A DNA stretch of 13,716 nt from a virus. Taxonomy: Duplodnaviria > Heunggongvirae > Uroviricota > Caudoviricetes. Within the stretch, counting starts at the first letter, position 1. The number at the start of each line of letters is the position of its first letter. The stretch is taken from IMG/VR virus record IMGVR_UViG_2778261086_000003, positions 1-13,716 of that record; one strand, written 5' to 3'. The translations under genes and the position numbers were made by a program. Below are positions 1 to 13,716 of the stretch, in pieces. The notes under the pieces were generated by a model. The model did no database searches. It was not told the origin of the DNA and saw only the letters and a program-made list of their open reading frames with translations.

Positions 1-867
1 TCAAAGGGGAGGTTCTGGTAGTTGCATCCAGTCGGTTACATTGCGACTCTGTGTTTCGAAAAATTCATCACCATTGCGGACAATATCGAAAAACTCTCCG
101 TCCCGATATTGCGCATAAAGAACGAATGCGCCATCACATAAAATAATTACGTGCTGATTATCATCAGGCATTCGCTCACTACAGCTTATCCAACCATCCG
201 GAGTTACCGGAACTTGCGGAATGGCTGTCTGCTCTCGAACGTCATTAGGCGCTATAGGTTCTGCTGCCAACTGACTGGCATATTTGTTAATGGTAACGAT
301 AAGCTCTTGCTCGGCCTCATCCAGACAATCACCGATACCTCGCCTGTCACCGTCAAAATCATCGAAATCGGCACGAATCTTGGCAACCTCCCGGATTGCG
401 GACAACACCTCACTAGGAATTACCGGATAGTTGGTTGACGTTTCCGCGATTTCCCGAAAATTATTGGTTGACGAATTCTTGTTTTCCCGAAAGTTTCCGG
501 ACTGAAGCATGGCGGCGCGGCAGGAGTTCCAGCCTCTCACCTCTGCAATAGCGGCAACAGCATCGACCGCGTACATTTTAAGAGGGTTAGGCATTGGTTT
601 TTCTTCAGGTACTACTGGCACTGGAGGGGTGGCATAAACAGGAATAACGTCCGATTGATCTTTATTACTTTCATCCGTCAAAGCCCAGAATAATTTCCCG
701 GCCGGATGTTTGAAAATATAAGCAACTGGATCTGCTTCCAGCGATGCCAGTGCAATTCGTGCCAGTTCTTCCGCTTCTTCTGCTGGCAGTACAACGTTGC
801 TACCAGGTCCGTATGTTTCGCGCCACTGCTTGATTGTAAGTAGTCGCTCTTTGGTAATAGTGGTCAT
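1..867 (-). CDS. DUF551-domain phage protein (288 aa)
   Basis: Complete ORF ending with a stop at 1-3. The C-terminal segment (MPDDNQHVIILCDGAFVLYAQYRDGEFFDIV...) resembles the DUF551 domain common in early-left regions of lambdoid prophages. Its start overlaps the stop of the upstream HNH gene by 4 nt. Family assigned from memory. Confidence 0.65.
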   Translation of the reverse strand: MTTITKERLLTIKQWRETYGPGSNVVLPAEEAEELARIALASLEADPVAYIFKHPAGKLFWALTDESNKDQSDVIPVYATPPVPVVPEEKPMPNPLKMYAVDAVAAIAEVRGWNSCRAAMLQSGNFRENKNSSTNNFREIAETSTNYPVIPSEVLSAIREVAKIRADFDDFDGDRRGIGDCLDEAEQELIVTINKYASQLAAEPIAPNDVREQTAIPQVPVTPDGWISCSERMPDDNQHVIILCDGAFVLYAQYRDGEFFDIVRNGDEFFETQSRNVTDWMQLPEPPL

Positions 868-1229
868 ACCGTAGCCCCTTCTTGATATTTTTCAAACCAG
901 AACACAACCGGGTCAGATTTCATTTCAACCAATCCCATACGAACCAGCGCTTTGCCTTTCCCGGATGCAAGGAATTCACGACGACCATCACTGATAATTC
1001 GCCGATAATCTTCCAGGCTACTGCAATGCTTGTGCAGATTGCATGGGTGGCATGCCGGAACCATGTTGGATATATCGTCACGTTCCTGGTGAAGCATATT
1101 TCCATCAAAACGAATGACCGGTTTTACATGGTCTGCATGCCACTTTTCGCCAAGTTCACAGCCGCAATAAGCACAGCGACCGCCAAACTTCATGCGCAAT
1201 TCTGCACGTTGTTTTTTCGTCAGTGCCAT
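864..1229 (-). CDS. HNH endonuclease (122 aa)
   Basis: Start placed at the internal ATG (1229-1227), preceded by GGAG and lying immediately after the upstream gene's stop (1231-1233); the longer ORF-track start at 1391 would overlap the Ead-like gene. Protein carries an HNH-type motif: CAYCGC...HADHVKP...CHPCNLHKH. Confidence 0.75.
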   Translation of the reverse strand: MALTKKQRAELRMKFGGRCAYCGCELGEKWHADHVKPVIRFDGNMLHQERDDISNMVPACHPCNLHKHCSSLEDYRRIISDGRREFLASGKGKALVRMGLVEMKSDPVVFWFEKYQEGATV

Positions 1230-1230
1230 T

Positions 1231-1920
1231 TCACTCTCCTTTGATGCGAATGCCAGCGGAGCGCTCGGCTTCACTTTGTTCCCAAAACCACTTGTGAAGC
1301 GCCATAAGCTTTTCGTCAATCGGTGCATATTTGCGATTAAAGTAGGCCTGAGCATCTTTCTCAGATTTGTCCGGCAATTCGCCAGGGCCAAACAGTGTGT
1401 TATAAATCCATGCCAGTCCGCTTTTAGCGTCGCCAGTTGCCTGCCATTCGATAATCGCAGCCTGCATGACCAGAATGTTTTTCCCGATTAACAGGTCCAG
1501 TTCTTTGAACCGGTTGCGGATGTATGCATTCTCGCTTTGTAATTTTGCGTTGCGCTTCTCTGCGGCTTCCAGCTCAACACGCAGCTTCCCTACCGTTAGC
1601 GCAATTTCCTCGTTCTCCTGGTCGCGGCGTTTGATGTATTGCTGTTTTCTTTCCAGCTCATCCAGCAGCGCCAAGACGGTAGCGGGATTGGCTGCGGCGA
1701 TGAATTCAGCATTGGCCTGCTGTTCCATTTGGAAATCTTCATCGAAACCGCTTTCTGGATGTGCTCCTTCAATTCTGCAAATAGGAATATATCCAGCAAC
1801 TTCACGATGAATTAGCGCATCATCACCATCAAATCGGCTCTCTCCATATTCGAGCGACCACTCACCACACGTTGCTTTTTCTGCCTTGGCCCGCAGTGCC
1901 TGAGAGTTAATTTCGCTCAC
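1231..1920 (-). CDS. Ead/Ea22-like phage early protein (229 aa), coiled-coil rich
   Basis: 229-aa ORF with a GTG start at 1920 that overlaps the TraR-like stop (GTGA). Central region is charged and heptad-like (ELERKQQYIKRRDQENEEIALTVGKLRVELEAAEKRNAKLQ). Composition and position match Ead/Ea22-family proteins of lambdoid phages. Confidence 0.6.
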   Translation of the reverse strand: MSEINSQALRAKAEKATCGEWSLEYGESRFDGDDALIHREVAGYIPICRIEGAHPESGFDEDFQMEQQANAEFIAAANPATVLALLDELERKQQYIKRRDQENEEIALTVGKLRVELEAAEKRNAKLQSENAYIRNRFKELDLLIGKNILVMQAAIIEWQATGDAKSGLAWIYNTLFGPGELPDKSEKDAQAYFNRKYAPIDEKLMALHKWFWEQSEAERSAGIRIKGE

Positions 1921-2138
1921 TTCGAACCTCTCTGTTTACTGATAAGCTCCAGATCTTCCTGGCAACTTGCACAAGTCCGACAACCCTGAACGGCCAGGCG
2001 TCTTCGCTCATCTATGGGATCGCCACACTCACAACAATGAGTGGCAGATATAGCCTGGTGGTTCAGGCGGCGCATTTTTATTGCTGTGTTGCGCTGTAAT
2101 TCTTCAATTTCTGATGCTGAATCAATGATGTCTGCCAT
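1917..2138 (-). CDS. TraR/DksA-family C4 zinc-finger protein (73 aa, lambda Orf73-like)
   Basis: 73 aa with a C-x2-C...C-x2-C arrangement (CCECGDPIDERRRLAVQGCRTCASCQ) typical of TraR/DksA C4 zinc fingers. Same size and position as the TraR homologue of phage lambda (Orf73). Confidence 0.8.
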   Translation of the reverse strand: MADIIDSASEIEELQRNTAIKMRRLNHQAISATHCCECGDPIDERRRLAVQGCRTCASCQEDLELISKQRGSK

Positions 2139-2144
2139 CTTTCA

Positions 2145-2234
2145 TTAATCCCTGAATTGTTGGTTAATACGCTTGAGGGTGAATGCGAATAATAAAAAAG
2201 GAGCCTGTAGCTCCATGATGATTTTGTTTTTCAT
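2145..2234 (-). CDS. candidate micro-ORF, 29 aa (MKNKIIMELQAPFLLFAFTLKRINQQFRD)
   Basis: Not in the ORF track (below its length cut-off). ATG lies 2 nt after the stop of the upstream 71-aa gene; its TAA lies 6 nt before the TraR-like ATG. It exactly fills the only gap in a tightly coupled operon. Speculative. Confidence 0.25.
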   Translation of the reverse strand: MKNKIIMELQAPFLLFAFTLKRINQQFRD

Positions 2235-2236
2235 GC

Positions 2237-2452
2237 TCACCGTTCCTTAAAGACGCCGTTTAACATGCCGATCGCCAGGCTTAAATGAGTCGGTGTGAAT
2301 CCCATCAGCGTTACCGTTTCGCGGTGCTTCTTCAGTACGCTACGGCAAATGTCATCGACGTTTTTATCCGGAAACTGCTGTCTGGCTTTTTTGATTTCAG
2401 AATTAGCCTGACGGGCAATACTGCGAAGGGCGTTTTCTTGCTGAGGTGTCAT
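2237..2452 (-). CDS. hypothetical phage protein (71 aa from ATG at 2452; alternative 93-aa form from 2518)
   Basis: ORF 2237-2518. I prefer the internal ATG at 2452 because it forms an ATGA overlap with the stop of the 27-aa micro-ORF upstream. No family recognised. Confidence 0.5.
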   Translation of the reverse strand: MTPQQENALRSIARQANSEIKKARQQFPDKNVDDICRSVLKKHRETVTLMGFTPTHLSLAIGMLNGVFKER

Positions 2453-2532
2453 TGAACAAGTCCCATGTCGGCAAGCATAAGCACACAGAATATGAAGCCC
2501 GCTGCCAGAAAAATGCATTCAGTGGTTGTCAT
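2449..2532 (-). CDS. candidate micro-ORF, 27-aa hydrophobic peptide (MTTTECIFLAAGFIFCVLMLADMGLVQ)
   Basis: Hand-translated from the minus strand. Its ATG overlaps the stop of the 63-aa gene (ATGA, 2532-2529) and its TGA overlaps the ATG at 2452 (ATGA). One predicted transmembrane helix. Not in the ORF track. Confidence 0.3.
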   Translation of the reverse strand: MTTTECIFLAAGFIFCVLMLADMGLVQ

Positions 2533-2720
2533 ACCTGGTCTCTCTCATCTGCTTCTGCTTTCGCCACCATCATTTCCAGCTTTTGTGAAAGGGATGCGGC
2601 TAACGTATGAAATTCTTCGTCTGTTTCTACTGGTATTGGCACAAACCTGACTCCAATTTGAGCGAGGCTATGTGCCATCTCAATGCTCGTTCTTAACTCA
2701 ACAGGAGATGCTTTGTGCAT
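2529..2720 (-). CDS. hypothetical small phage protein (63 aa)
   Basis: First ORF of the leftward gene chain, acidic C-terminus (AKAEADERDQV). No confident family assignment. Confidence 0.5.
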   Translation of the reverse strand: MHKASPVELRTSIEMAHSLAQIGVRFVPIPVETDEEFHTLAASLSQKLEMMVAKAEADERDQV

Positions 2721-3046
2721 ACAGCTCCCCGTTTATTATTTATCTCCTCAGCCAGCCGCTGTGCTTTCAGGGGATTTCGGGTAACAGAAAGGCCGGGAAA
2801 TACCCAGCCTCGCTTTGTAACGGAGTAGACGAAAGTGATCGCGCCTATGAAACCAAGGACCTGGTTGATGTCGTAACCGGCGAAATCACTACTATCCAGT
2901 CGTTACGCCATACCTCCGATCTTGATACCGGAGAGATGTATGTCTTCCTGTGTAAGGTTGAAGCCTGGGCGATGAATATTGGCTGCCACCTGACTATTCC
3001 ACAGAGCTGCGAGTTTCAGCTGCTGCGCGACAAGCAGGAGGCGTAA
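2672..3046 (+). CDS. hypothetical protein, possibly the 3' remnant of a nin-region gene
   Basis: Reading frame ends at a TAA (3044-3046) that overlaps the ninE ATG. It has no convincing ATG with a ribosome-binding site, and its 5' end overlaps the divergent 63-aa gene. May be a truncated remnant left by a deletion. Confidence 0.3.
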   Translation: MPSQCSFLTQQEMLCAYSSPFIIYLLSQPLCFQGISGNRKAGKYPASLCNGVDESDRAYETKDLVDVVTGEITTIQSLRHTSDLDTGEMYVFLCKVEAWAMNIGCHLTIPQSCEFQLLRDKQEA

Positions 3047-3216
3047 TGGCTACACCGCTTATTCGTGTCATGAACGGACACATCTACAGAGTACCAAATC
3101 GTCGTAAGCGTAAACCTGAGCTGAAGCCATCCGAAATACCAACACTGCTCGGATATACCGCCAGCCTGGTTGATAAAAAATGGTTGCGACTGGCAGCAAG
3201 GAGGAGTCATGGCTGA
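3046..3216 (+). CDS. ninE: NinE protein (56 aa)
   Basis: Hand translation [56 protein letters not shown] matches the NinE family. AGGAGG lies 6 nt upstream; the stop overlaps the ybcO start region. Confidence 0.85.
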   Translation: MATPLIRVMNGHIYRVPNRRKRKPELKPSEIPTLLGYTASLVDKKWLRLAARRSHG

Positions 3217-3499
3217 TTTGAGAAAAGCAGCGCGTGGTCGGGAATGCCAGGTAAGAATCCCTGGCGTATGTAATGGCAACCCTGAAACGTCTGTACTGGC
3301 ACATATCCGGCTGACTGGATTGTGCGGCACCGGTACGAAACCGCCAGACCTGATTGCCACCATTGCATGTTCTGCCTGCCACGACGAAATCGACCGCCGC
3401 ACGCATTTTGTTGACGCTGGATATGCAAAAGAATGCGCGCTGGAAGGTATGGCGAGAACACAGGTTATCTGGCTGAAAGAGGGGGTTATTAAGGCGTGA
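3209..3499 (+). CDS. ybcO: YbcO-family nin-region protein (putative Zn-binding nuclease, 96 aa)
   Basis: [37 protein letters not shown]... with GGAGG at 3201-3205. Conserved Cys/His pattern. Sits in the ninE-ybcO-rusA order seen in DLP12-type prophages. Confidence 0.85.
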
Positions 3500-3858
3500 A
3501 TACCTACAGCATCACATTACCCTGGCCTCCGAGCAATAATCGCTATTACCGCCATAATCGCGGGCGCACGCACGTCAGCGCAGAGGGGCAGGCATACCGC
3601 GATAACGTCGCCCGAATCATTAAAAACGCAATGCTGGATATCGGCCTGGCTATGCCTGTGAAAATCCGCATTGAGTGCCACATGCCGGATCGCCGTCGCC
3701 GTGACCTGGATAATCTGCAAAAAGCCGCTTTTGACGCACTCACTAAAGCAGGTTTCTGGCTGGATGATGCTCAGGTCGTTGATTACCGCGTTGTGAAGAT
3801 GCCTGTTACCAAAGGTGGGAGGCTGGAACTGACCATCACCGAAATGGGGAATGAATGA
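3496..3858 (+). CDS. rusA: RusA Holliday-junction resolvase (120 aa)
   Basis: GTG start overlapping the ybcO stop (GTGA). Sequence [28 protein letters not shown]...[10 protein letters not shown] is recognisable as RusA. Confidence 0.9.
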
Positions 3859-3995
3859 TGTTTGAGTTTTATATGGCAGAACTTCTTCGCCACCGCTGGG
3901 GGCATCTGCGCTTATATCGTTTCCCCGGTTCTGTTTTGACCGATTACCGAATACTGAAGAATTACGCCAAAACCCTGACAGGAGCAGGAGTATGA
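3855..3995 (+). CDS. ylcG: YlcG small protein (46 aa)
   Basis: Hand-translated: [50 protein letters not shown] overlap with the rusA stop. Lies between rusA and Q as in DLP12. Confidence 0.75.
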
Positions 3996-4080
3996 AGTCA
4001 GAGATAACAATCAACTAATACTGTTTTGTTGATTTTTGCTTGTAATTGGCGTTCTGGTCTGATTTTTGTGGAGTAAGTTG

Positions 4081-4458
4081 ATGCGTGATATTCAGATGGT
4101 TCTTGAGCGTTGGGGAGCGTGGGCGGCTAATAATCATGAAGATGTGACCTGGTCGTCCATTGCCGCCGGTTTTAAGGGATTAATTACTTCAAAAGTAAAA
4201 TCTCGCCCGCAATGTTGTGACGATGACGCGATGATTATTTGCGGGTGCATGGCCCGTCTGAAAAAGAACAACAGCGATTTGCATGATTTATTGGTGGACT
4301 ATTATGTCGGCGGCATGACTTTTATGGCGCTTGCACGTAAGCATGGGCGATCTGATTGTTGGGTTGGCAGGATGCTCCAGAAAGCTGAGGGCGTAGTGGA
4401 GGGTATGCTGATGGTGTTGGATCTCCGATTGGAGATGGATGCTGATTGTTCGAAATAA
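4081..4458 (+). CDS. quuD: late-gene antiterminator Q (QuuD-like, 125 aa)
   Basis: ATG at 4081 preceded by GGAG (4070-4073); the ORF-track start at 4066 is a TTG extension. [24 protein letters not shown]... resembles DLP12/phage-82-type Q. Followed by a terminator, as expected for the pR'/tR' arrangement. Confidence 0.8.
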
Positions 4459-4558
4459 TTAAAGGAAAAGTTGCTGTCTGATTGTCATTAGTCTAACATT
4501 TTAAATGTTGGAATCGCAACGTAGTTATTATCATATAACAGCTTGTTTCCTGATTTAG
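4459..4558 (+). promoter_or_regulatory. putative late promoter and Q-utilisation region
   Basis: Position only: in lambdoid phages pR' and qut lie between Q and tR'. Weak -35/-10 candidates (TTGCTG...TAACAT) but no confident match. Confidence 0.3.
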
Positions 4559-4585
4559 CCAGCCTCCCCAAAGGCTGGTTTTTTT
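4559..4585 (+). terminator. rho-independent terminator (tR'-like)
   Basis: Stem CCAGCCT (4559-4565), loop CCCCAA, stem AGGCTGG (4572-4578), then TTTTTTT (4579-4585). Plus-strand only; the reverse read has no U-tract. Confidence 0.65.
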
Positions 4586-4613
4586 CTAATAAGTATTATT
4601 TCGGGTAGGGATT

Positions 4614-5138
4614 TTATTGTTTAACCCATAATAATTCATTGACATTGAATCCCAACTTTTGAGCGGTTCGCACATAGTCTGCTTTTACTTTATCTGGAAT
4701 AGTTGGGGTCCTTGCCAGAATCCATAGGTATTCTCTGTTCGGACCACTGACAAGAGCATACTTATACTCATCATCCAGTTTGATTACATTATAGCCACCA
4801 TAGAAGGGGCCAAAAAACGAAACCTTCAATGCTGCAGTTTTAGTATCTCCAGTAAAGTATGCTTTACCTTCGCTCTCGCTCCATTTATTTTTCGTTGGAT
4901 CGTATCCACGGTTAAGTACACGAATCCCTCCGTCGTTCCGTTTTCCATAAGTAGCGCTGACCTGTTCCAGATCACGTTCGAACCGGTTCTCGAGGCGAGC
5001 TATTTCATACCATTTTCCGAGGTAGCGGTTGGCGTCAAAATTTGTAATCGGCTGCACACCTTTAGGTGGTGTCGGGGCCTTACATGCTATAAGAGTGAAA
5101 GAGAGTGCAATGCCAGTCAACACAGGCCATAACTTCAT
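4614..5138 (-). CDS. Blc-family bacterial lipocalin, outer-membrane lipoprotein (174 aa)
   Basis: Signal peptide with lipobox (LIAC), then lipocalin signatures (NFDANRYLGKWYEIARLENRFE...YLWILARTP). Homologous to but distinct from chromosomal Blc. Lower GC than flanking phage genes and antisense to late transcription. Confidence 0.85.
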   Translation of the reverse strand: MKLWPVLTGIALSFTLIACKAPTPPKGVQPITNFDANRYLGKWYEIARLENRFERDLEQVSATYGKRNDGGIRVLNRGYDPTKNKWSESEGKAYFTGDTKTAALKVSFFGPFYGGYNVIKLDDEYKYALVSGPNREYLWILARTPTIPDKVKADYVRTAQKLGFNVNELLWVKQ

Positions 5139-5330
5139 AATAAATCCTGTACTTTTGATAGTTGAGAGTAAGTATGAAAGATAGATGATTACGACCGATC
5201 ACTTAAAGAACTTTCATACTATATTAGGAATAGTCCATAACAGAAAAATTGTCAGTGATGACGCCAGAAAGGCAATTTATTCCGTGCACTACACAGTTTA
5301 TGTGTTAATGAATTAGTCAAGGGGGAGAAT

Positions 5331-6290
5331 ATGATAAAAAAACCTGTGATTGGAATCAGCGGTTGTTTGGCCGGTTCTGCTGTTCGTTTTGATGGTGGTC
5401 ACAAAAGAGCTGACTTTTTAATGGACAAATTAGTGGAATGGGTAACATTCAGACCAGTATGTCCGGAAATGGCTATAGGGCTGCCAGTTCCGCGTCCTGC
5501 TCTACGTCTTGTGCGCTCGACGCAAGGAAATATACGGATGTGTTTCAGCCACGACCAGAATGAGGATGTGACAGAGAGAATGACAGAGTTTAGTCGTTCT
5601 TATATGGACAAATTAAAGGATGTATCGGGGTTTGTGGTTTGTGCTAAATCTCCCAGCTGTGGCATGGAGCGCGTGCGTGTCTATGATGAAAATGGTAATC
5701 GAGGTCGTAAAGATGGAGTGGGACTATTTACGAGTACTTTGATGGAAAAGTTTTCCTGGCTACCGGTTGAAGAGGATGGGCGATTACATGATCCAGTGCT
5801 TCGTGAGAATTTTGTTGAAAGAGTTTTTGCTTTGCATGAGCTCAATCACCTTTACAAGGAGAAATTATCAAGAAGAGAGTTATTAGCTTTTCATAGTCGT
5901 TATAAGCTTCAGTTGTTGGCGCATAGTCAGGCAGGCTATAAAGATATGGGACCATTTGTGGCTGCAATACACGAGTGGGCGGACCTTGAATCATACTTTG
6001 AGGTGTATCGTGATAATCTGATGGCGATTCTCAGAAAACCAGCATCACGTAAAAATCACACGAATGTGCTGATGCATATACAGGGGTATTTTAGTAATTA
6101 CTTAAGTACACGCCAGCGTAAAGAGTTGAGCGAGGTTATACTTAACTATCGCTTTGGCACATTGCCTCTTCTTGCGCCGTTGACTCTGCTGAAGCATTAT
6201 CTGGGTGAGTATCCTAATGATTACTTGCTTACACAGAATTACTTCGATCCCTATCCGGACGAACTGGCTCTAAGACTGATGGTAAATTAA
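5331..6290 (+). CDS. DUF523-DUF1722 fusion protein (RudS/TudS-like putative thionucleoside desulfidase, 319 aa)
   Basis: N-terminus has the DUF523-type Cys pattern (GISGCLAG, PVCPE, CAKSPSCGM), consistent with a [4Fe-4S] TudS-like fold. The C-terminal ~150 aa resemble the DUF1722 (YbgA-like) domain. GGAG 4 nt before the ATG. Domain call from memory, not HMM-verified. Confidence 0.65.
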   Translation: MIKKPVIGISGCLAGSAVRFDGGHKRADFLMDKLVEWVTFRPVCPEMAIGLPVPRPALRLVRSTQGNIRMCFSHDQNEDVTERMTEFSRSYMDKLKDVSGFVVCAKSPSCGMERVRVYDENGNRGRKDGVGLFTSTLMEKFSWLPVEEDGRLHDPVLRENFVERVFALHELNHLYKEKLSRRELLAFHSRYKLQLLAHSQAGYKDMGPFVAAIHEWADLESYFEVYRDNLMAILRKPASRKNHTNVLMHIQGYFSNYLSTRQRKELSEVILNYRFGTLPLLAPLTLLKHYLGEYPNDYLLTQNYFDPYPDELALRLMVN

Positions 6291-6641
6291 TTGTATGCGA
6301 TATCATCCAAAAGGATGAGTTCCTGCATGCAGGATATTTACAATCGTAAAAACTACACTATGATACCCAGAGTGTCAGTTTGTATAAAAACTCTGTTTAC
6401 GCTGAAGAAACAATTGAGATGCAACTTAAAGTTGGTAAACATGCCAGTCAAAATATATAATATTATGATTCCACGCAGCTATATATAATATAACAGATTG
6501 GTTTAATAATTTGTCTTTGTGAGTTAAATACATAATTTTATACTTGTGATGCAATGAAATTTTCCTTATTGTTGAACTGGCGAATATTGATTTTCCACCT
6601 ATACTTACCTGGTGTAACCCCAATGATATCAGGTGGATAAT

Positions 6642-7373
6642 ATGCCATACATATGTTCTATCATTTTGGTGTTGAACTCGTTTGATGTCCGAATTGGTAA
6701 AGAAGATATTTTGTTTAAAAAAGGAAGTGCTGTTCTCATTGATTACAATTTAAAAGATTTTTTTTCATCAAATATAGATCATGTAATGATCGTAGATGTT
6801 GAAGAGAAAACAGTTAATGATTTCTTTAAAAGCAACACACTCTCACCTTTTTCTGTAAGAAGGTTTTATCCGGCATACTTGATGGTGGAATGTGAAGATT
6901 TTTCATTGTTAAAGAACTTGATTGCATGCTTGAATTGTGATGGCAGAACTGTGGATTTTGTTAGAAATCAAATATCACTTGCATGTCTTGCTATCTTATC
7001 TTCAGAGAAAATAGTGCAAAGTTTTTTATTTGGATGTCTTAATAGTTTAGGAAGTAAAGTTAAGGCTATTATTCACACGGATATATCTGCAGCATGGAGA
7101 CTTTGTGATATATCTTCAAGACTGTATCTGAGTGAAAGTCTGTTAAAAAGAAAATTAAAGCACGAAGGCTTATCATTTAGTAAGTTAATTCTTGAAGAGC
7201 GAATGGTGATGGCGGAAAGGTTATTAAGCTACAATTTATATTCTGTTGGAAAAGTTGCTGAGATATGCGGTTATGAAAACACGTCATATTTTGTAAGTGT
7301 TTTCAGAAGATATTTTGGTGTTCCTCCCCATCAATATTCATCAAGATTTTTTTTAGAAAAAGACATGATGTAA
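6642..7373 (+). CDS. AraC/XylS-family transcriptional regulator (243 aa)
   Basis: C-terminal AraC-type HTH region (LLKRKLKHEGLSFSKLILEERMVMAERLL...VGKVAEICGYENTSYFVSVFRRYFGVPPHQY). ATG at 6642 with AGGTGG 5 nt upstream; the ORF-track start at 6633 is a GTG extension. Very AT-rich gene and leader. Confidence 0.75.
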   Translation: MPYICSIILVLNSFDVRIGKEDILFKKGSAVLIDYNLKDFFSSNIDHVMIVDVEEKTVNDFFKSNTLSPFSVRRFYPAYLMVECEDFSLLKNLIACLNCDGRTVDFVRNQISLACLAILSSEKIVQSFLFGCLNSLGSKVKAIIHTDISAAWRLCDISSRLYLSESLLKRKLKHEGLSFSKLILEERMVMAERLLSYNLYSVGKVAEICGYENTSYFVSVFRRYFGVPPHQYSSRFFLEKDMM

Positions 7374-7434
7374 CGTGATGCGTTTTAATGATTTTGTAAT
7401 TTTCGTATTTGATAATTGTATGATGCTTTCAGCT

Positions 7435-7466
7435 ACGCCAGAATAATCGCTGGCGTTTTTCTTTTT
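7435..7466 (+). terminator. rho-independent terminator downstream of the AraC gene
   Basis: Stem CGCCAG (7436-7441), loop AATAATCG, stem CTGGCG (7450-7455), then TTTTTCTTTTT. Confidence 0.55.
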
Positions 7467-7561
7467 GAATAGATGTTCAAGCCTTACGCTAATGTAACTT
7501 CTATACCTTTCCTCTTCGTTCCGAACCGTGTACACCATCCGTTATTTGCGGAGGTGAGGCT

Positions 7562-7777
7562 ATGAAATCTATGGATAAGTTAACAACGGGCATTGCCTAC
7601 GGTACCTCCGCAGGCAGTGCTGGCTACTGGTTTTTACAGCTGCTCGATAAAGTCACGCCCTCACAGTGGGCAGCAATAGGTGTATTGGGTAGTCTGGTAT
7701 TTGGCCTGCTGACGTACCTGACAAACCTTTATTTCAAGATTAAAGAAGATAAGCGCAAGGCTGCGAGAGGTGAATAA
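7562..7777 (+). CDS. essD: class II holin (phage 21 S21-like pinholin, 71 aa)
   Basis: [26 protein letters not shown]...; two transmembrane segments; dual-start motif Met1-Lys-Ser-Met4. GGAGGTGAGG ribosome-binding site. Stop overlaps the endolysin ATG (TAATG). Symbol follows DLP12 naming. Confidence 0.85.
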
Positions 7778-8274
7778 TGCCTCCATCATTACGAAAAGCC
7801 GTTGCTGCGGCTATTGGTGGCGGGGCTATTGCTATAGCATCTGTGTTAATCACTGGCCCAAGTGGTAACGATGGTCTGGAAGGCGTCAGCTACATACCAT
7901 ATAAAGATATCGTTGGTGTATGGACTGTATGTTACGGGCATACCGGAAAAGACATTATGCTCGGTAAAACGTATACCGAAGCAGAATGCAAAGCCCTCCT
8001 GAATAAAGACCTTGCCACTGTCGCCAGACAAATTAACCCGTACATCAAAGTCGATATACCGGAAACAACGCGCGGCGCTCTTTACTCGTTCGTTTACAAC
8101 GTTGGTGCTGGAAATTTCAGAACATCGACGCTTCTTCGCAAAATAAACCAGGGCGATATCAAAGGCGCATGTGATCAGCTACGGCGCTGGACATACGCTG
8201 GCGGTAAGCAATGGAAAGGGCTGATGACTCGCCGTGAGATTGAGCGTGAAGTCTGTTTGTGGGGGCAACAATGA
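7777..8274 (+). CDS. rrrD: SAR endolysin (phage 21 R21-like lysozyme, 165 aa)
   Basis: N-terminal Gly/Ala-rich weakly hydrophobic SAR segment ([20 protein letters not shown]), then a T4-lysozyme-like catalytic core. Stop overlaps the next ATG (ATGA). Symbol follows DLP12 naming. Confidence 0.9.
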
Positions 8275-8503
8275 GTAGAGTAACCGCGATTATGGTTCGA
8301 AATGGGATGTTATCCGTGAACGTGTGCTCAAGCGTGACAAAGGACTGTGTCAGTTATGTCTGCGTGGTGGTGTGGTGCGTGAGGCGAAAACCGTTGACCA
8401 CATCATCCCTAAAGCACATGGCGGCACTGATGCCGACAGCAATCTGCAGAGCCTGTGCTGGCCGTGTCATAAGGCGAAGACGGCCCGTGAACGGCTGAAG
8501 TAA
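8271..8503 (+). pseudogene. Rz (spanin) start fused to the 3' fragment of an HNH endonuclease gene
   Basis: ATG at 8271 encodes MSRVTAI, identical to the first seven residues of lambda-type Rz, then diverges. A different frame (from ~8279, after an in-frame TAG at 8276-8278, to TAA 8501-8503) encodes SNRDYGSKWDVIRERVLKRDKGLCQLC...DHIIPKAHGGTDADSNLQSLCWPCHKAKTARERLK, an HNH C-terminus with no start codon. Confidence 0.6.
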
Positions 8504-8628
8504 GAACCAGTTCCCACTGCCAGAGGGGAGGGGCGGGTCAAATCCCTGTGACCTGACGTCTTCCGGACTGCCCGCCCCATCGTTTTTTTATACCCGCGAA
8601 AAATGAAATTTAACCAGGAGTGCCGCAT
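8504..8628. other. putative cos / packaging-site region
   Basis: Non-coding, GC-rich, with an imperfect inverted repeat (GGGGCGGG ... CCCGCCCC) and a T-tract, located between the HNH fragment and the small terminase gene, the usual cos position in HK97-like modules. Cleavage site not identifiable by eye. Confidence 0.3.
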
Positions 8629-9123
8629 ATGGCTGGAACGGCGGGGCGTTCCGGGCGTCGCCCCAAGCCAACGGCGCGCAAGGCGCTGGCCGGAAACCCC
8701 GGCAAGCGAGCCCTGAACAAAGATGAACCTGTTTTTACGCCCATCAAAGGTGTTGAGCCACCGGAGTGGTTCGCTGAAGAAGATCTCCCTCTCGCCACGA
8801 TCATGTGGCAACTGACAACCAAAGAACTCTGCGGTCAGGGCCTGCTGTGCGTGACTGACCTCGCGGTGCTTGAGCGGTGGTGCGTGGCCTATGAGTTCTG
8901 GCGACGTGCCGTGAAAAATATTGCCAGACAGGGCAACACCATCACCGGTGCAATGGGCGGCATGGTCAAAAATCCGGAGCTGACCGCCAAAAAAGAACAG
9001 GAGTCCGAGATGAGCAGCACGGGGGCAATGCTCGGACTCGACCCCAGCAGCCGTCAGCGTCTGATTGGCCTGGCGGGGCAGAAGAAAACCACTAACCCGT
9101 TTCTGAAAATCATCGAATCATGA
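8629..9123 (+). CDS. terminase small subunit (P27/HK97 gp1-like, 164 aa)
   Basis: ATG at 8629 with AGGAG 9 nt upstream; the ORF-track start at 8620 is a GTG extension. Basic N-terminus ([27 protein letters not shown]). Stop overlaps the large terminase ATG (ATGA). Confidence 0.8.
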
Positions 9124-9938
9124 GCCGGAAATCTTACCCCAACGTAAATGCTGCCAATCAGTATGCCCGGGATGTCGTGCGCGGAAAGATTGTGGCCTGC
9201 CAGTTTGTGATTCAGGCCTGCCAGCGCCATCTTGATGACCTGATGGAGGAAAAAAGTAAGTCGTTTCGTTACCGCTTCGACAAGGACCTGGCTGAACGGG
9301 CCGCGAAATTTATTCAGCTGTTGCCGCACACCAAGGGTGAGTGGGCATTTAAGAGGATGCCCATCACGCTGGAGCCGTGGCAGCTCTTTGTGATCTGCTG
9401 CGCGTTTGGCTGGGTCAATAAAGGCTCCCGGCTGCGCCGCTTCTGTGAGGTGTATACCGAAATCCCCCGTAAGAACGGCAAATCGGCAATCTCTGCCGGT
9501 GTCGCCCTGTATTGTTTTGCCTGTGATAACGAGTTTGGCGCGGAAGTGTATTCCGGTGCCACGACAGAGAAACAGGCGTGGGAAGTCTTTCGCCCGGCGC
9601 GACTGATGTGTAAACGCACACCCATGCTGACGGAAGCGTTCGGGATTGAGGTTAACGCCTCAAACATGAACCGTCCGGAGGATGGCGCGCGGTTTGAACC
9701 GCTGATCGGCAACCCCGGTGATGGTTCATCACCCCACTGTGCGGTGGTGGATGAATATCACGAGCACGCCACCGATGCGCTTTATACCACGATGCTTACC
9801 GGGATGGGGGCGCGACGTCAGCCACTGATGTGGGCCATCACCACCGCCGGGTACAACATTGAGGGGCCGTGCTACGACAAGCGGCGGGAAGTTATCGAGA
9901 TGCTCAACGGTTCGGTATCAAATCGGATGGCACGGTGA
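9120..9938 (+). pseudogene. terminase large subunit, 3'-truncated (N-terminal ATPase domain only, 272 codons)
   Basis: Walker A motif (EIPRKNGKS) and ATPase-domain sequence present. The reading frame stops after ...EMLNGSV, whereas intact large terminases are roughly twice this length. Downstream sequence switches to unrelated glycine-rich coding. Confidence 0.8.
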
Positions 9939-10600
9939 AAACGGCTCTCGAAAACCTTGGTTTGGGAGATGGCTCGGGGCGTTACAGCAAAACTGTCGTT
10001 TTTTCATCGTCGGGTTCATATACGTGGCCAGCTGACGTAAAACGAATTGACGTTATTCTGACTGCGGGGGGCGGCGGTGGCGGTGGATGTAACGCGGAGA
10101 ACGCAAATCAGACATTTTCAGGGGCTGGCGGAGGAGCCGGAGGTACTGTTTTTGCCACTATTTATGCGACAGACAACGATGCCGGGCCAGGGACCTATAC
10201 AGTGACAATTGGCAGCGGTGGTAGTGGTGCCAATGGGCCAGGGTCTGGAAATAATGGCGGTAATAGTTCGTTCATGACATTAACTGCGCTCGGCGGCCAG
10301 GGTGGGCAATGGGGCGGCGCTACAAATACCGCTGGCGGGCGCGGTGGCTCAGGCTCTGGCGGTTATAAAACTGAACAAGGCGGAGACGGTTCAGACGGAC
10401 AGGCGGGCCAGGCGCTATTAGTAGGCAATGGGGCATCGAGCTATTGGGGTGGCGGCGGCCGCGCTGGGCAACTGAGCGGTAATCCTGGAGTTTGCTCTGG
10501 CTCCGGCGGCGGGGGTGCATACGATAATAGCTATTCACACACGTCAGGACGTGGCGGGCACGGAGCTAATGGCGTGCTGGTAATTCGGGAGTTCATGTAA
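9869..10600 (+). CDS. glycine-rich tail-fibre C-terminal fragment (5' end missing; real start unknown)
   Basis: ORF of 243 codons overlapping the truncated terminase. Sequence ...[26 protein letters not shown]... followed by long GGxGG/GSG runs is characteristic of glycine-rich domains of phage tail fibres. Immediately followed by a tail fibre assembly gene. The first ~15 codons are probably terminase DNA read out of frame. Confidence 0.5.
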
Positions 10601-11005
10601 ATGAATGATATCTATGCAGTTGTTGATAATAACGTTGTTATTAATGTCATTATCTGGGACGGAATTTCTGAATGGAAACCAGAGGCTGGTAATTTAGTTC
10701 CGTTAAACGGCGATGCTGGCATCGGTTGGTCATATTCAGACGGAGTATTTACCGCGCCACCTCCCCCAGAACGCTCTCACAACGCGTTAGTTGCGGAGGC
10801 TGAGCTGCAGAAATCAGCACTACTGACCGTAGCAAATAACACAATAGCACCGCTGCAGGATGCCGTTGATTTGGAAATGGCGACAGACGATGAACAGGCG
10901 TTAATGCTGGCGTGGAAAAAATACAGGGTACTGCTGAACCGTGTTGATACCTCAGCGGCACCCGAAATAGAGTGGCCTACGCAACCGGGGGAGCGGGCCA
11001 GTTGA
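10601..11005 (+). CDS. tail fibre assembly protein (Tfa, 134 aa)
   Basis: C-terminus ...[48 protein letters not shown] matches the conserved Tfa chaperone C-terminal domain. Start is immediately after the upstream stop (TAAATG). Confidence 0.8.
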
Positions 11006-11129
11006 TATCAGGCGCAGCGTCAGCATCAACTGCTGTCACTGCGTCGATGTAGTCGAGTACCGCATTCAGCCGCGTTTTTTCATCATCAGTCAGTTTGCGG
11101 CCTGCACTTCTCCGTTGACATCTTTGTTA
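10977..11129 (-). pseudogene. decayed fragment of a second, convergent tail fibre assembly gene
   Basis: Minus-strand translation gives ...[38 protein letters not shown], sharing the TDDE...VD..AP.I.WP pattern of Tfa C-termini. No start codon in frame; upstream frames contain stops and a frameshift. Its 3' end overlaps the plus-strand tfa by about 28 bp. Confidence 0.4.
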
Positions 11130-11263
11130 TATGGTACAACTGCGCAGAGGCCTGTCTCTTCAATTGTGCCAGTTGAATACTACGATACAACGCTCGGCCT
11201 TCCTGTTTGGTGGAACATAACCACATCCACATGGAAAAGAGCTGATGGTGTAGATGTATAAAC

Positions 11264-11293
11264 TTAAAAAAGGCGCTTTTTAGCGCCTTTAAA
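11264..11293 (-). terminator. rho-independent terminator after the acyltransferase gene
   Basis: Stem AAAGGCGCT (11269-11277), loop TTTT, stem AGCGCCTTT (11282-11290). Read on the minus strand the hairpin is followed by a U-tract, directly after the acyltransferase stop at 11294-11296. Confidence 0.55.
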
Positions 11294-12415
11294 TTAAGAT
11301 ATTCTTTTAGCTATAGAATGACCTATATTTATAAACGGTTTTTCTATTACGTTATATATCAAGTAAGATAGGCTTATAGAAATTATGAGCGATGATATAT
11401 AAATGGCAAACGATCTATGTTCAGTGCTAATACCAATACTGGAACCGTAAAACTCAATAAACTGTATAACAGGAACATGAATCAGATAAAGTGAATATGA
11501 TATTCCACCAAGAGCAACAAGTGATTTATTGAATGAAATAACTTTATTATTTTCTAGAATAATAACACACAAAACAATCAGAAATGCAATATATGCAGAT
11601 CGCGTCAAACCATGTCCTTCAGACACCCCATTAAGCCAAAAAACAAACATCATTCCTAGAATGAAAACGCATAAACTATTTATAATAGAATTATTCATTC
11701 TTTTATGCCTAAGTAAAGGCATTGTCTCTGATATAATCATCCCTAAAATGAAATCATATACTATAGGATTGCCTATGAATCCTATATGAGAAAACACCCC
11801 TGTTTTTGCAATATTGAATGATTGGGCGTCAATTACTACCGAGTGGTTAAAGTAAAGAGAAATAATTGTACTTACAGCAACTAGAAAACATGATGTGATT
11901 AATACCCTGTATTTTATGCTTAATGACATGGATATTGCGAAAATAAAATAAAAATATATCTCGTACCCAAGTGACCATGAAACAATTAGCGTTCCCCACC
12001 CATAATATGGCGGTAGAGTTGAGACATCTAAAGGGATGAGAAGAAATGATTTTATAATATTATTTATAGAAAAAACACCACCCCATGATACGCCTGTGTA
12101 AATATTGTGGTAAAAAAGAAAAACATAAACGCTTAATACTATTGCGTAAACAGGATAAATTCTAAAAAATCTCTTTACAAGAAATGAGGCGGTATTTCTT
12201 AAAGATGTTTTTGTAAAGTTTTTAGTTGAGTATGATATTATAAATCCGCTTATTATAAAAAACAATTCAACTCCAAATATAGCATTCGCGGTTATCCTGT
12301 CCATGAAAGAACCAGGATCTACTTGCCCGAAAAGACCTCTATTATGACCAATAGCTACAGCAAGAGCTGCAATTCCACGAAGCGCTTCTATTCCGTATAA
12401 TTTATCTGTTTTCAT
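11294..12415 (-). CDS. acyltransferase-3 family integral membrane O-acyltransferase (Oac/OafA-like, ~373 aa)
   Basis: Multi-pass hydrophobic protein with the N-terminal acyltransferase-3 signature (LYGIEALRGIAALAVAIGH). Start placed at ATG 12415; the ORF-track start at 12418 is a TTG. Very AT-rich and adjacent to the integrase, as for O-antigen acetylase genes of Shigella phages. Confidence 0.85.
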   Translation of the reverse strand: MKTDKLYGIEALRGIAALAVAIGHNRGLFGQVDPGSFMDRITANAIFGVELFFIISGFIISYSTKNFTKTSLRNTASFLVKRFFRIYPVYAIVLSVYVFLFYHNIYTGVSWGGVFSINNIIKSFLLIPLDVSTLPPYYGWGTLIVSWSLGYEIYFYFIFAISMSLSIKYRVLITSCFLVAVSTIISLYFNHSVVIDAQSFNIAKTGVFSHIGFIGNPIVYDFILGMIISETMPLLRHKRMNNSIINSLCVFILGMMFVFWLNGVSEGHGLTRSAYIAFLIVLCVIILENNKVISFNKSLVALGGISYSLYLIHVPVIQFIEFYGSSIGISTEHRSFAIYISSLIISISLSYLIYNVIEKPFINIGHSIAKRIS

Positions 12416-12558
12416 CAAGTAATATAGTTAGTAGTTGATAAAATTGTTGCTGGAGTCTACCACCAAGAGCTTGGATGATCGACCAGTTAGCATCTCAAGC
12501 TGTATGCGTGAGACAAAAACGAGACACACAAAGCTTTGCAAGTCTTTGCGCTGTTTAC

Positions 12559-13716
12559 CTATGATACCTTCTCCTCAATCCAATCCGCCCACCACTGCAT
12601 CATTTCTCTGCGCTTATCGAGATACTGAGCATGGTTGTAAATCCCGCGCACAGATCCGCCGTTGGCATGTGCCAGTTGCACTTCAATAGCATCAGCAGGC
12701 CATTCGTGCTCGTTCATAATCGTGCTGAATTCATGCCTGAATCCGTGACCGCTTTCCAGACCTTCATAGCCGATTTGTTTGATCACAAGCAGTACAGCGT
12801 TCTCGCAAATTGGCTTCTTCTTATCGTTGCGCCCGGCAAAAACAAACTCTGATACTGGTTTGGTGATTGAACTTAGCGTAGTGAGAAGTTCAACTACCTG
12901 GTCTGACATAGGAACCACATGAATCTTGCGTCCCTTCATCACACTGGCCTCGATGGTGATAATCCTGTTTTCAAAATCGACGTTCTTCCATTGCATGGAA
13001 CGAAGCTCTTTTGTTCTTAGTGCTGTGTAGCGTAAAACTTTGGTCGCAATGAGAGATACGATACTTCCTGAAAATGTTGCAAGTGCTTTGTTGAATGCCG
13101 GGATCTGGTCGGCAGGTAAAAACGGGAAGTTCTTCTTGCGGTATCCTTTCATGGCGTCTGCAAGGTCAGGTGCCGGGTTATATTTAGCCCTTCCGGTGAC
13201 AATAGCGTAACGAAAAACCTCGCCGCATCTTCTGCGGGCTTTGTTGGCTCGCTCCATTGCACCGCGATCTTCAAATCTTCGGATTACTTCCAGCAGTTGC
13301 ATCGGCTCAATATCCTGAATTTCAAGACCGCCGATGATGGGTAAAATGTCGTCATCAAACATTTTGGCAAGTTCAGTTGCATAGCCTACTGACCAGACTT
13401 GCTTCTTGTGCTCGTACCATTCCTTGTAAATCGCACTAAATGAATTGTTGTTAGACGAAGCCTTTTTCGCCTTTACCGGATCGATGCCAACCGAGATGTC
13501 TTTCCTCGCAGTCCATGCCTTATCCCTTGCTTCCTGCAAAGTCATAAGCGGATATTTTCCGACAGTCAGGATTTTCTCCTTACCGTCAATCTTGTAGCGA
13601 AGCTGCCATACCTTTTTCCCTGATACAGGGACATAAAGGTACAGGCCATTACCATCGAGTAGGCGGTATGGTTTTTCTTTCGGCTTTGCTGCTTCAATCT
13701 GCTTAACGGTGAGCAT
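12559..13716 (-). CDS. tyrosine-type site-specific integrase (P4/CPS-53 IntS-like, 385 aa)
   Basis: Full ORF whose ATG is the last three bases of the window. C-terminal catalytic signature (HGFRHEF ... LAHANGGSVRGIYNHAQY). N-terminus MLTVKQIEAAKPKEKPYRLLDGNGLYLYVPV is typical of tRNA-associated P4-family integrases. Attachment site would lie beyond the window. Confidence 0.9.
   Translation of the reverse strand: MLTVKQIEAAKPKEKPYRLLDGNGLYLYVPVSGKKVWQLRYKIDGKEKILTVGKYPLMTLQEARDKAWTARKDISVGIDPVKAKKASSNNNSFSAIYKEWYEHKKQVWSVGYATELAKMFDDDILPIIGGLEIQDIEPMQLLEVIRRFEDRGAMERANKARRRCGEVFRYAIVTGRAKYNPAPDLADAMKGYRKKNFPFLPADQIPAFNKALATFSGSIVSLIATKVLRYTALRTKELRSMQWKNVDFENRIITIEASVMKGRKIHVVPMSDQVVELLTTLSSITKPVSEFVFAGRNDKKKPICENAVLLVIKQIGYEGLESGHGFRHEFSTIMNEHEWPADAIEVQLAHANGGSVRGIYNHAQYLDKRREMMQWWADWIEEKVS

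Follow-up and report, generated by a model that had tools for sequence, protein, structure and literature searches.

The window analyzed here is the whole 13,716-nucleotide stretch (positions 1 to 13,716) of the tailed-phage record IMGVR_UViG_2778261086_000003, and we focus on two micro open reading frames (ORFs) on its minus strand, at 2449-2532 and 2145-2234. A previous sequence-only reading had proposed both, one for a hydrophobic 27-residue peptide (the 27-mer) and one for a 29-residue peptide (the 29-mer), as unannotated members of a translationally coupled early operon. The two frames, their ATGA overlaps and the minus-strand chain of abutting or overlapping genes running from 2720 to 1 were recovered exactly where they had been placed. 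From upstream to downstream, the chain is composed as follows.

2529..2720, minus strand: orf63 (DUF1382; PF07131, 107.8 bits; DNA 97% identical to lambda orf63), directly upstream of the 27-codon ORF
2449..2532, minus strand: hydrophobic 27-codon micro-ORF, ATG 2532-2530, TGA 2451-2449, peptide MTTTECIFLAAGFIFCVLMLADMGLVQ
2237..2452, minus strand: orf61 in its 71-residue reading (MTPQQ...), a 216-nt coding sequence (CDS) according to the Prokaryotic Genome Annotation Pipeline (PGAP); a 93-residue reading begins at ATG 2518
2145..2234, minus strand: 29-codon micro-ORF, ATG 2234, TAA 2147-2145, peptide MKNKIIMELQAPFLLFAFTLKRINQQFRD; 31 residues if begun at GTG 2240
2190..2214, minus strand: terminator-like hairpin GGAGCU-ACA-GGCUCC followed by UUUUUUAUUA, found by scan inside the 29-codon ORF (codons 8-12)
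2122..2145, minus strand: 7-codon ORF MKDGRHH, sharing a TAATG overlap with the stop of the 29-codon ORF and running across the orf73 start
1917..2138, minus strand: orf73, a TraR/DksA-type zinc-finger gene (PF01258, 35.8 bits; phrog_54)
1231-1920, minus strand: Ea22-like gene (Pfam Ead_Ea22)
864-1229, minus strand: HNH gene (Pfam HNH)
1-867, minus strand: DUF551 gene (Pfam DUF551)

The ATG of the 27-codon ORF and the orf63 stop (2531-2529) are joined in an ATGA at 2532-2529, and its TGA is joined with the ATG of the 71-residue orf61 (2452-2450) in a second ATGA at 2452-2449. A gap of 2 nt separates the orf61 stop (2239-2237) from the 29-codon ORF, or, if the latter is read from GTG 2240, the two share a GTGA at 2240-2237; another 6 nt separate its end from the orf73 ATG (2138). 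Further downstream follow a GTGA overlap between orf73 and the Ea22-like gene at 1920, a 1-nt gap before the HNH gene (ATG 1229), and an ATGA overlap at 867 between the HNH and DUF551 genes. Overlapping or abutting stops and starts of this kind are the layout expected of translationally coupled genes, and the overlaps suggest that coupling occurs.

The interval is the orf63-orf61-orf73 part of the conserved exo-xis block in the lambdoid pL operon, the leftward early genes. It aligns base for base to the equivalent region of lambda, with 95-98% identity over the lambda block and genes and order unchanged, and the 861 nt around the micro-ORFs are 97.2-98.3% identical to lambda, 434 and Shiga toxin (Stx) phages, with DE3 also among the 97-98% matches. 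Of 5426 complete E. coli genomes, 3345 have at least one copy of the block, at 95-99% identity, and the copies total ~4800. Thus, the block is present in most E. coli genomes as well as in Stx phages, and its genes are studied as modulators of lysis and lysogeny. Both micro-ORFs also exist in lambda itself, at 31008-30925 (27-mer) and 30715/30709-30620 (31/29-mer). Compared with the lambda block investigated by the Wegrzyn and Donaldson laboratories (orf60a-orf63-orf61-orf73-ea22), the window has the same genes in the same order, but its orf60a is truncated and the region from exo to pL is deleted. The designation as an early operon is therefore apt for the gene set, which belongs to the leftward early (pL) genes, whereas in the window pL itself has been lost, by a deletion at ~2846.

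That the micro-ORFs are unannotated is correct for the RefSeq/PGAP loci, where both stretches are empty, yet not beyond them. Phage submissions mostly call orf61 as 93 residues, thereby taking in the 27-codon stretch, and the 29-codon ORF is annotated as a hypothetical CDS in three phages (434, Lys19259Vzw and phi345). Both exact peptides are already entries of a public protein collection, as 'hypothetical protein', from 981 (27-mer) and 999 (29-mer) contigs. The literature treats the 27-codon stretch as part of orf61 and the 29-codon stretch as an intergenic terminator/promoter region (PMC8614690, PMC4195576). Neither peptide string was retrieved by a full-text paper search or from ribosome-profiling supplements of enterohaemorrhagic E. 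coli; the 27-codon ORF is hence present in databases, yet we found no paper that mentions it. What is new here is the frame-specific evidence for this ORF, a corrected orf61 start and the implication for orf61 deletion mutants.

The 27-codon ORF and the start of orf61

Similarity searches anchored on orf61 in viral contigs, genomes and annotated records yielded 225 related loci, 164 after removal of duplicates, and 162 after two error-laden assemblies were dropped. The 27-codon ORF is intact in 185 of 185 fetched loci that have the stretch, duplicate fetches included, with 17 nucleotide haplotypes and an identical peptide in 171, and without a single stop, frameshift or indel. The sequence-only reading had held that stops or frameshifts in related prophages would speak against the micro-ORFs, and neither frame has any, in these 185 loci for the 27-codon ORF and in 221 for the 29-codon ORF.

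The changes that have occurred are informative. Sixteen distinct substitutions fall in the 27-codon frame, 10 synonymous, 6 nonsynonymous and none generating a stop, distributed 5:1:10 over the codon positions. In a permutation test that retained each base change and shuffled its position inside the ORF, this synonymous excess gave P=0.003-0.005, the sole significant value among the six frames, antisense included (P >=0.13 for the other five); the antisense frame that shares its third positions with the 27-codon ORF has a ratio of 7 synonymous to 9 nonsynonymous. An own-frame, third-position excess of synonymous changes without stops is what purifying selection leaves, and on this pattern the ORF is more than a chance frame. 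The amino acid variants, from the loci and from databases, amount to a handful, most of them conservative or close to a terminus (T3A/I, E5K, C6S, F8L, A11G, D22N and V26A/I). Mosaic phages provide independent support: 23 non-redundant loci have an unrelated, Dam-like methylase gene in place of orf63, the TGA of which overlaps the very same ATG in an ATGA, preceded by a GGGAGG Shine-Dalgarno sequence. In addition, the stretch is either complete or cleanly missing among the non-redundant loci.

Considering the peptide, the grand average of hydropathicity (GRAVY) is 1.62, the uninterrupted apolar run spans 16 residues, and C6-V26 comprises 21 residues with one Asp. An apolar segment of this length would suffice to span the bilayer as a helix, as in a small single-pass membrane protein, so the proposed hydrophobic, membrane-type character appears valid for the 27-mer.

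Several observations weigh against a functional gene. The stretch is absent in 28 of the 162 non-redundant loci, and in one diverged locus (L014, Escherichia sp. E1V33) a 14-nt deletion moves the 27-mer ATG into the orf61 frame. The peptide is thus dispensable, as the ORF is disrupted in L014 and missing or broken in ~18% of the loci. The 27-mer has two acidic and no basic residues, a net charge of -2, which is unusual among small membrane proteins. Protein searches returned no homologue outside a narrow E. coli phage family, and the statistical evidence consists of 16 changes in closely related, non-independent sequences retrieved with orf61 as anchor, the P value becoming ~0.02 following correction for six frames. 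Behind orf63 the Shine-Dalgarno sequence is weak, and the extra ORFs from ribosome profiling listed in a review are of 7 and 31 residues only, with none of 27 (PMC8614690). Lambda footprints over the stretch would, however, have been assigned to orf61, since that annotation covers it.

These points bear on the alternative that the 27-codon ORF is a non-functional open frame in a spacer, conserved by a recent recombinational spread of the block, with the synonymous excess being sampling noise. The block is indeed 95-99% identical everywhere, the frame offers just the 16 changes, and the absences, the broken copy in L014 and the missing distant homologues are all compatible with such a spacer. 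Nevertheless, sampling noise would have to produce a bias confined to one of six frames, and a passive spacer would have to remain free of stops and indels in 185 loci while keeping exact ATGA junctions at both ends in two different upstream contexts. By a back-of-the-envelope estimate, the probability that a 76-nt spacer contains an open 27-codon frame flanked by ATGA on either side is well under 1%. We therefore deem the spacer explanation unlikely, and suggest with moderate confidence, as judged from sequence comparison, that the 27-codon ORF is a genuine accessory gene whose product is a hydrophobic peptide of one helix.

Attempts at a deeper comparison recovered no distant homologues: orf61 relatives below 80% identity are error-laden assemblies (L113, L114) or a copy interrupted by an insertion sequence (L115), and diverged DUF1382 genes are directly followed by other genes, with no mini-ORF. 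Neither the 27-mer nor the 29-mer has a match above threshold in Pfam, PHROG, NCBIfam, PADLOC or PDB, and a doubled 27-mer query matched only fusions and rearrangements. On the opposite strand, a 61-residue antisense ORF (2465-2650, plus strand) briefly appeared better conserved than orf63, an artefact of a non-homologous haplotype flanking an insertion sequence; no antisense frame is significant after cleaning. A (GA)4 tract lies at 2533-2545, just before the orf63 stop, and several database proteins of 89 residues (P0128, P0130, P0132 and P0134) are in-frame fusions of orf63 and the 27-mer through losses of 1 or 2 nt in this tract. Either sequencing errors or real slippage, which would add a hydrophobic tail to Orf63, could account for them.

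The same stretch has been assigned to orf61, as the N-terminal 22 residues of a 93-residue protein begun at ATG 2518, which would render the 27-codon frame incidental. This form is annotated in phi24B (HM208303, vb_24B_7c), Stx2 phage II (AP005154), phi345 (PV189402) and many E. coli records, and has been modelled so in the literature; the phrog_303 profile takes in the extension, and in L014 an ATG led by GGAGG feeds the extension frame. On the contrary, the frame of the extension has accumulated 2 synonymous and 13 nonsynonymous changes and 1 stop, a TGA/GGA polymorphism is located just upstream of the 93-residue start, and no Shine-Dalgarno sequence precedes ATG 2518. PGAP annotates 71 residues, and the review leaves out residues 1-23 of Orf61, where the models disagree (PMC8614690). 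In the 28 loci without the 27-codon ORF, a spacing of 7 nt separates an unrelated gene from orf61, which differs in its first six residues and has a GAGG of its own before the ATG equivalent to that of the 71-residue form; this start thus is sufficient. We consequently consider the 93-residue form very improbable. Since the 27-codon frame has the synonymous excess and the extension frame has the 2/13/1 pattern, orf61 most likely starts at 2452 and encodes 71 residues. Use of the start at 2518 had been named by the sequence-only reading as a finding that would overturn it; the outcome favors the 27-codon ORF.

Two further remarks concern the naming of orf61. At alignment column 369, the A-run is A7 in laboratory lambda and DE3 but A6 in the window, 434 and Stx phages; the one extra A shifts the frame of orf61 and accounts for the odd 61-residue annotation (lambda 30839-31024; locus L004, 1040-1225). 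The classical lambda 'orf61' is accordingly a frameshifted allele of the 71-residue gene, and A7 is present in just 4 distinct loci of the set. A scan of genome contigs mostly returned lambda spike-in contamination in unrelated 'genomes': fourteen loci (L015-L028) are identical lambda sequence with A7 in assemblies labelled Shewanella, Bradyrhizobium, Pseudomonas, Paenibacillus, Kitasatospora and others, almost certainly spike-in or control DNA. Additionally, the NCBI name 'cell division protein ZapA', given to the orf61 product (2237-2452) in many records, looks unfounded, as the Pfam ZapA match scores 16.1 bits against a cut-off of 23.8.

The 29-codon ORF and the predicted terminator t2

The 29-codon ORF is open in 221 of 221 loci (32 haplotypes), and its ATG is universal, positioned 9 nt after an AAGGA. 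The upstream start of the 31-residue form is not universal, being GTG in the window, ATG in lambda and GTT in one locus (L142). In L014 a 29/32-residue ORF remains open at similar length although its 3' half is ~25% diverged and no orf73 follows. Being the last homologous element before unrelated DNA, the ORF and its hairpin may end the operon there; upstream in the same locus (L014 371-1438 and 1435-1811) a 355-residue DGQHR-motif protein precedes the orf61 module, in place of orf63.

The peptide itself is less convincing. The GRAVY is ~0, the longest apolar run 8 residues and the net charge +3, so that, judged by its sequence, the 29-mer is not membrane-type, the run being too short for a helix; the membrane character proposed for the micro-ORF products thus does not extend to it. 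Its hydrophobic core, PFLLF, is the translated U-tract of the hairpin. The substitutions (6-7 synonymous, 10-12 nonsynonymous) are without codon-position bias (P=0.42-0.45 in the six-frame permutation), and radical variants occur (R7M, T18I and L19P, hence a Leu to Pro change in the core); the latter speak against a meaningful peptide. The permutation result as such neither supports nor excludes coding, since orf63, a studied protein with a nuclear magnetic resonance structure (PMC10869804), fails the same test (P=0.27).

The hairpin consists of a 6-8 bp stem with 4 G-C pairs, an ACA loop and a U6 tract, with a folding energy of -8.6 kcal/mol in the window and -10.2 kcal/mol for the consensus (z -2.7 and -3.6, respectively). 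Of 162 loci, 161 share an identical stem; the copy of the window has U for G just 5' of the stem, reducing the helix from 8 to 6 pairs. A G+C-rich stem directly followed by a U-tract is the signature of a Rho-independent terminator, and the hairpin is hence a predicted one. It has the sequence of t2, which Bloch et al. 2014 (PMC4195576 Table 4) predicted, along with promoter p1, for the orf61-orf73 interval of lambda and phi24B, without treating the stretch as coding. As indirect evidence of termination, quantitative reverse-transcription PCR in lambda showed lower levels of orf73, ea22 and ea8.5 than of the genes upstream, which was not the case in phi24B (PMC4195576). The ORF does fill the only gap in the chain, as previously noticed; the gap was, however, already described as predicted t2 and p1. 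Neither strand has a match in Rfam. When 2130-2260 was folded (minimum free energy and centroid), only the terminator hairpin and weak flanking pairs were obtained (z -1.2), with no alternative antiterminator.

Translation of the region has been reported: a review cites Liu et al. 2013 for a 31-residue gene in the conserved block, 'orf2313', and a 7-residue one, 'orf2311', found by ribosome profiling (PMC8614690). The lambda equivalent of the 29-codon ORF (30715-30620, ATG AAC ATG...) is the only 31-codon leftward ORF in the block, and it is therefore very probably 'orf2313', an identity that follows from length only; the window differs by having GTG rather than ATG at the 31-residue start. 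The lambda block has just three 7-codon leftward ORFs, MKDGRHH among them, and we conjecture that MKDGRHH is a candidate for 'orf2311'. Aggregated, the 29-codon ORF was already known in three ways, as a CDS in some records, as a predicted terminator/promoter and as the profiled 31-residue ORF. It consequently adds little new, the 90 nt having been read as terminator, promoter and translated mini-ORF.

How are these features reconciled? One serious rival holds that 2145-2234 is a regulatory spacer only, consisting of t2 and perhaps p1, with the ORF never meaningfully translated or its translation irrelevant. The hairpin and U-tract, the t2 and p1 predictions with the step-down of transcripts in lambda, the lack of a coding signature in any frame, and the origin of PFLLF in the U-tract all agree with this. 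It is less easily reconciled with the reported translation of a 31-residue ORF of the block, of which there is only one candidate, with an AAGGA 9 nt before a conserved ATG, and with the ORF staying open at similar length in L014 despite its diverged 3' half. We regard the spacer-only reading of 2145-2234 as possible, if doubtful. At the other end, the 29-mer may be a functional small protein, cationic and partly amphipathic, with a host or phage target. The universally open frame, the CDS annotations and the reported translation of the equivalent would fit such a protein, yet no amino acid constraint is apparent, radical substitutions reach the core, no family or structure matches, and a search with the 31-residue form returned only five matches, all at least 84% identical, among 1.84 billion representatives. 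A functional 29-mer is accordingly improbable in our judgment.

A combined interpretation and its relation to known systems

For the two ORFs together, we lean towards a reading in which the 27-codon ORF is a real accessory gene and the 29-codon ORF is a short ORF across t2 with a probably non-functional peptide. Ribosomes that end orf63, or the Dam-like methylase gene elsewhere, would restart at the overlapping AUG of the 27-codon ORF, as hinted by the AUGA, and those that end the 27-mer would restart at the orf61 AUG at 2452 through the second AUGA. The product would be essentially one hydrophobic helix, a putative single-pass inner-membrane peptide. Our best guess is that, soon after infection or induction, it modulates a protein of the host envelope, and phenotypes currently attributed to orf61 may be partly due to it. 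The 29-codon ORF, in turn, is probably translated from its AAGGA-led ATG, which would take ribosomes from orf61 over the hairpin to orf73 and tend to suppress the hairpin. Speaking against such a bridge to orf73, L014 retains the ORF in the absence of orf73, which weakens the idea.

A more ambitious scheme can be built on the same elements. Here, the 29-codon ORF and t2 would form a translation-gated terminator exactly between reportedly pro-lytic (orf60a, orf63 and orf61) and reportedly pro-lysogenic (orf73, ea22, xis and int) genes. Ribosomes coming off orf61 would open the hairpin so that transcription proceeds, and the balance between the two groups would follow the translational state of the cell; the 27-mer would in addition be behind part of the phenotypes of orf61 deletions, the odd adsorption defect included. 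We view this as a long shot.

Regarding function, the sequence-only reading pointed to Kil-like division inhibitors and toxins. Kil, DicB and KilR are, as the 27-mer would be, very short products of early leftward operons, and the 27-mer is hydrophobic enough for one helix. However, neither peptide is related in sequence to any described family in the databases searched above, and Kil-type division inhibitors are soluble rather than hydrophobic. A Kil-like or toxin role would be pure analogy, backed by nothing beyond the hydrophobicity of the 27-mer, and the 29-mer is a misfit. Type I toxins (Hok, TisB, Ibs and ShoB type) are likewise hydrophobic and of 20-50 residues; the 27-mer differs from these by residing inside a coupled operon, whereas they are encoded by stand-alone genes paired with an antisense RNA, by the lack of an Rfam match and by having no basic residues. 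The 29-codon ORF is comparable to leader-peptide attenuators in that it crosses a hairpin and U-tract, so that translation and termination could interfere. Unlike in attenuators, the fold contains no antiterminator hairpin, there is no regulatory codon run, and the ORF is located inside an operon and not in a 5' leader.

If the 27-mer is real, the consequences reach beyond the window. Orf61 of Stx phages has then been modelled with a wrong N-terminus (93 rather than 71 residues), and the orf61 deletion mutants took out two genes, not one. In these mutants the orf61 sequence was replaced as annotated, and this annotation extends over the 27-codon ORF in both lambda and phi24B; the deletions thus probably removed the 27-mer as well. 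Even lambda would then still carry an undescribed gene for a small membrane protein.

Loss of pL and the apparent prophage remnant around it

The block of the window has been separated from its promoter, and two features upstream of orf63 document the event.

2721..2846, minus strand: 3' remnant of orf60a, 5'-truncated; a deletion joins it to ybcN (plus strand), likewise 5'-truncated
2783..2810, minus strand: hairpin GGCUGGG-UAUUU-CCCGGCC followed by UUUCUGUU in the orf60a remnant, the predicted terminator t1 by sequence (PMC4195576 Table 4)

The orf60a homology stops at ~2846, where that to ybcN begins (query position 247), and the region from exo through P, pL included, is deleted; the intact layout is preserved in locus L006. 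The block consequently lies neither downstream of exo, bet, gam and N nor under transcription from pL, as a lambdoid block would, and a scan of 2720-3300 detected no promoter-like site on the minus strand. With pL lost by deletion, the block represents a relic here and not a working early operon, and the micro-ORFs along with the block are likely inactive in this window. A similar two-piece orf60a/ybcN arrangement is found in just 3 complete E. coli genomes.

The t1 hairpin in orf60a is presumably lambda tL3, which we take to be positioned just after exo. Assignment of the hairpin in the 29-codon ORF to tL3 was considered and dropped, as the presumed tL3 position suits t1; the GenBank lambda records are without terminator features.

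As a whole, the window (1-13716) appears to be the complete, though heavily deleted, remnant of a single lambdoid prophage. Its boundaries coincide exactly with the DUF551 stop codon at the start and, at the end, with the ATG of an IntS-like integrase gene (12559-13716, minus strand). A circular element was considered and rejected, since the junction of the joined ends matched no E. coli genome, and the window contains no tRNA. Besides the exo-xis block, its content includes NinE/YbcO/RusA/Q, a P21-type holin, lysozyme, an HNH gene and TerS. TerL is reduced to its ATPase domain (9120-9938), overlapping a Gly-rich tail-fibre fragment (9869-10600), which is followed by a tail-fibre assembly gene and an acyltransferase (11294-12418, minus strand). 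Finally, three cargo genes occupy 4614-7373, between the Q antiterminator and the holin, which is the position of stx in Stx phages.

4614-5138, minus strand: Blc-like lipocalin, cargo gene
5331-6290: 2-thiouracil desulfurase/DUF1722 protein, cargo gene
6633-7373: AraC-type regulator, cargo gene

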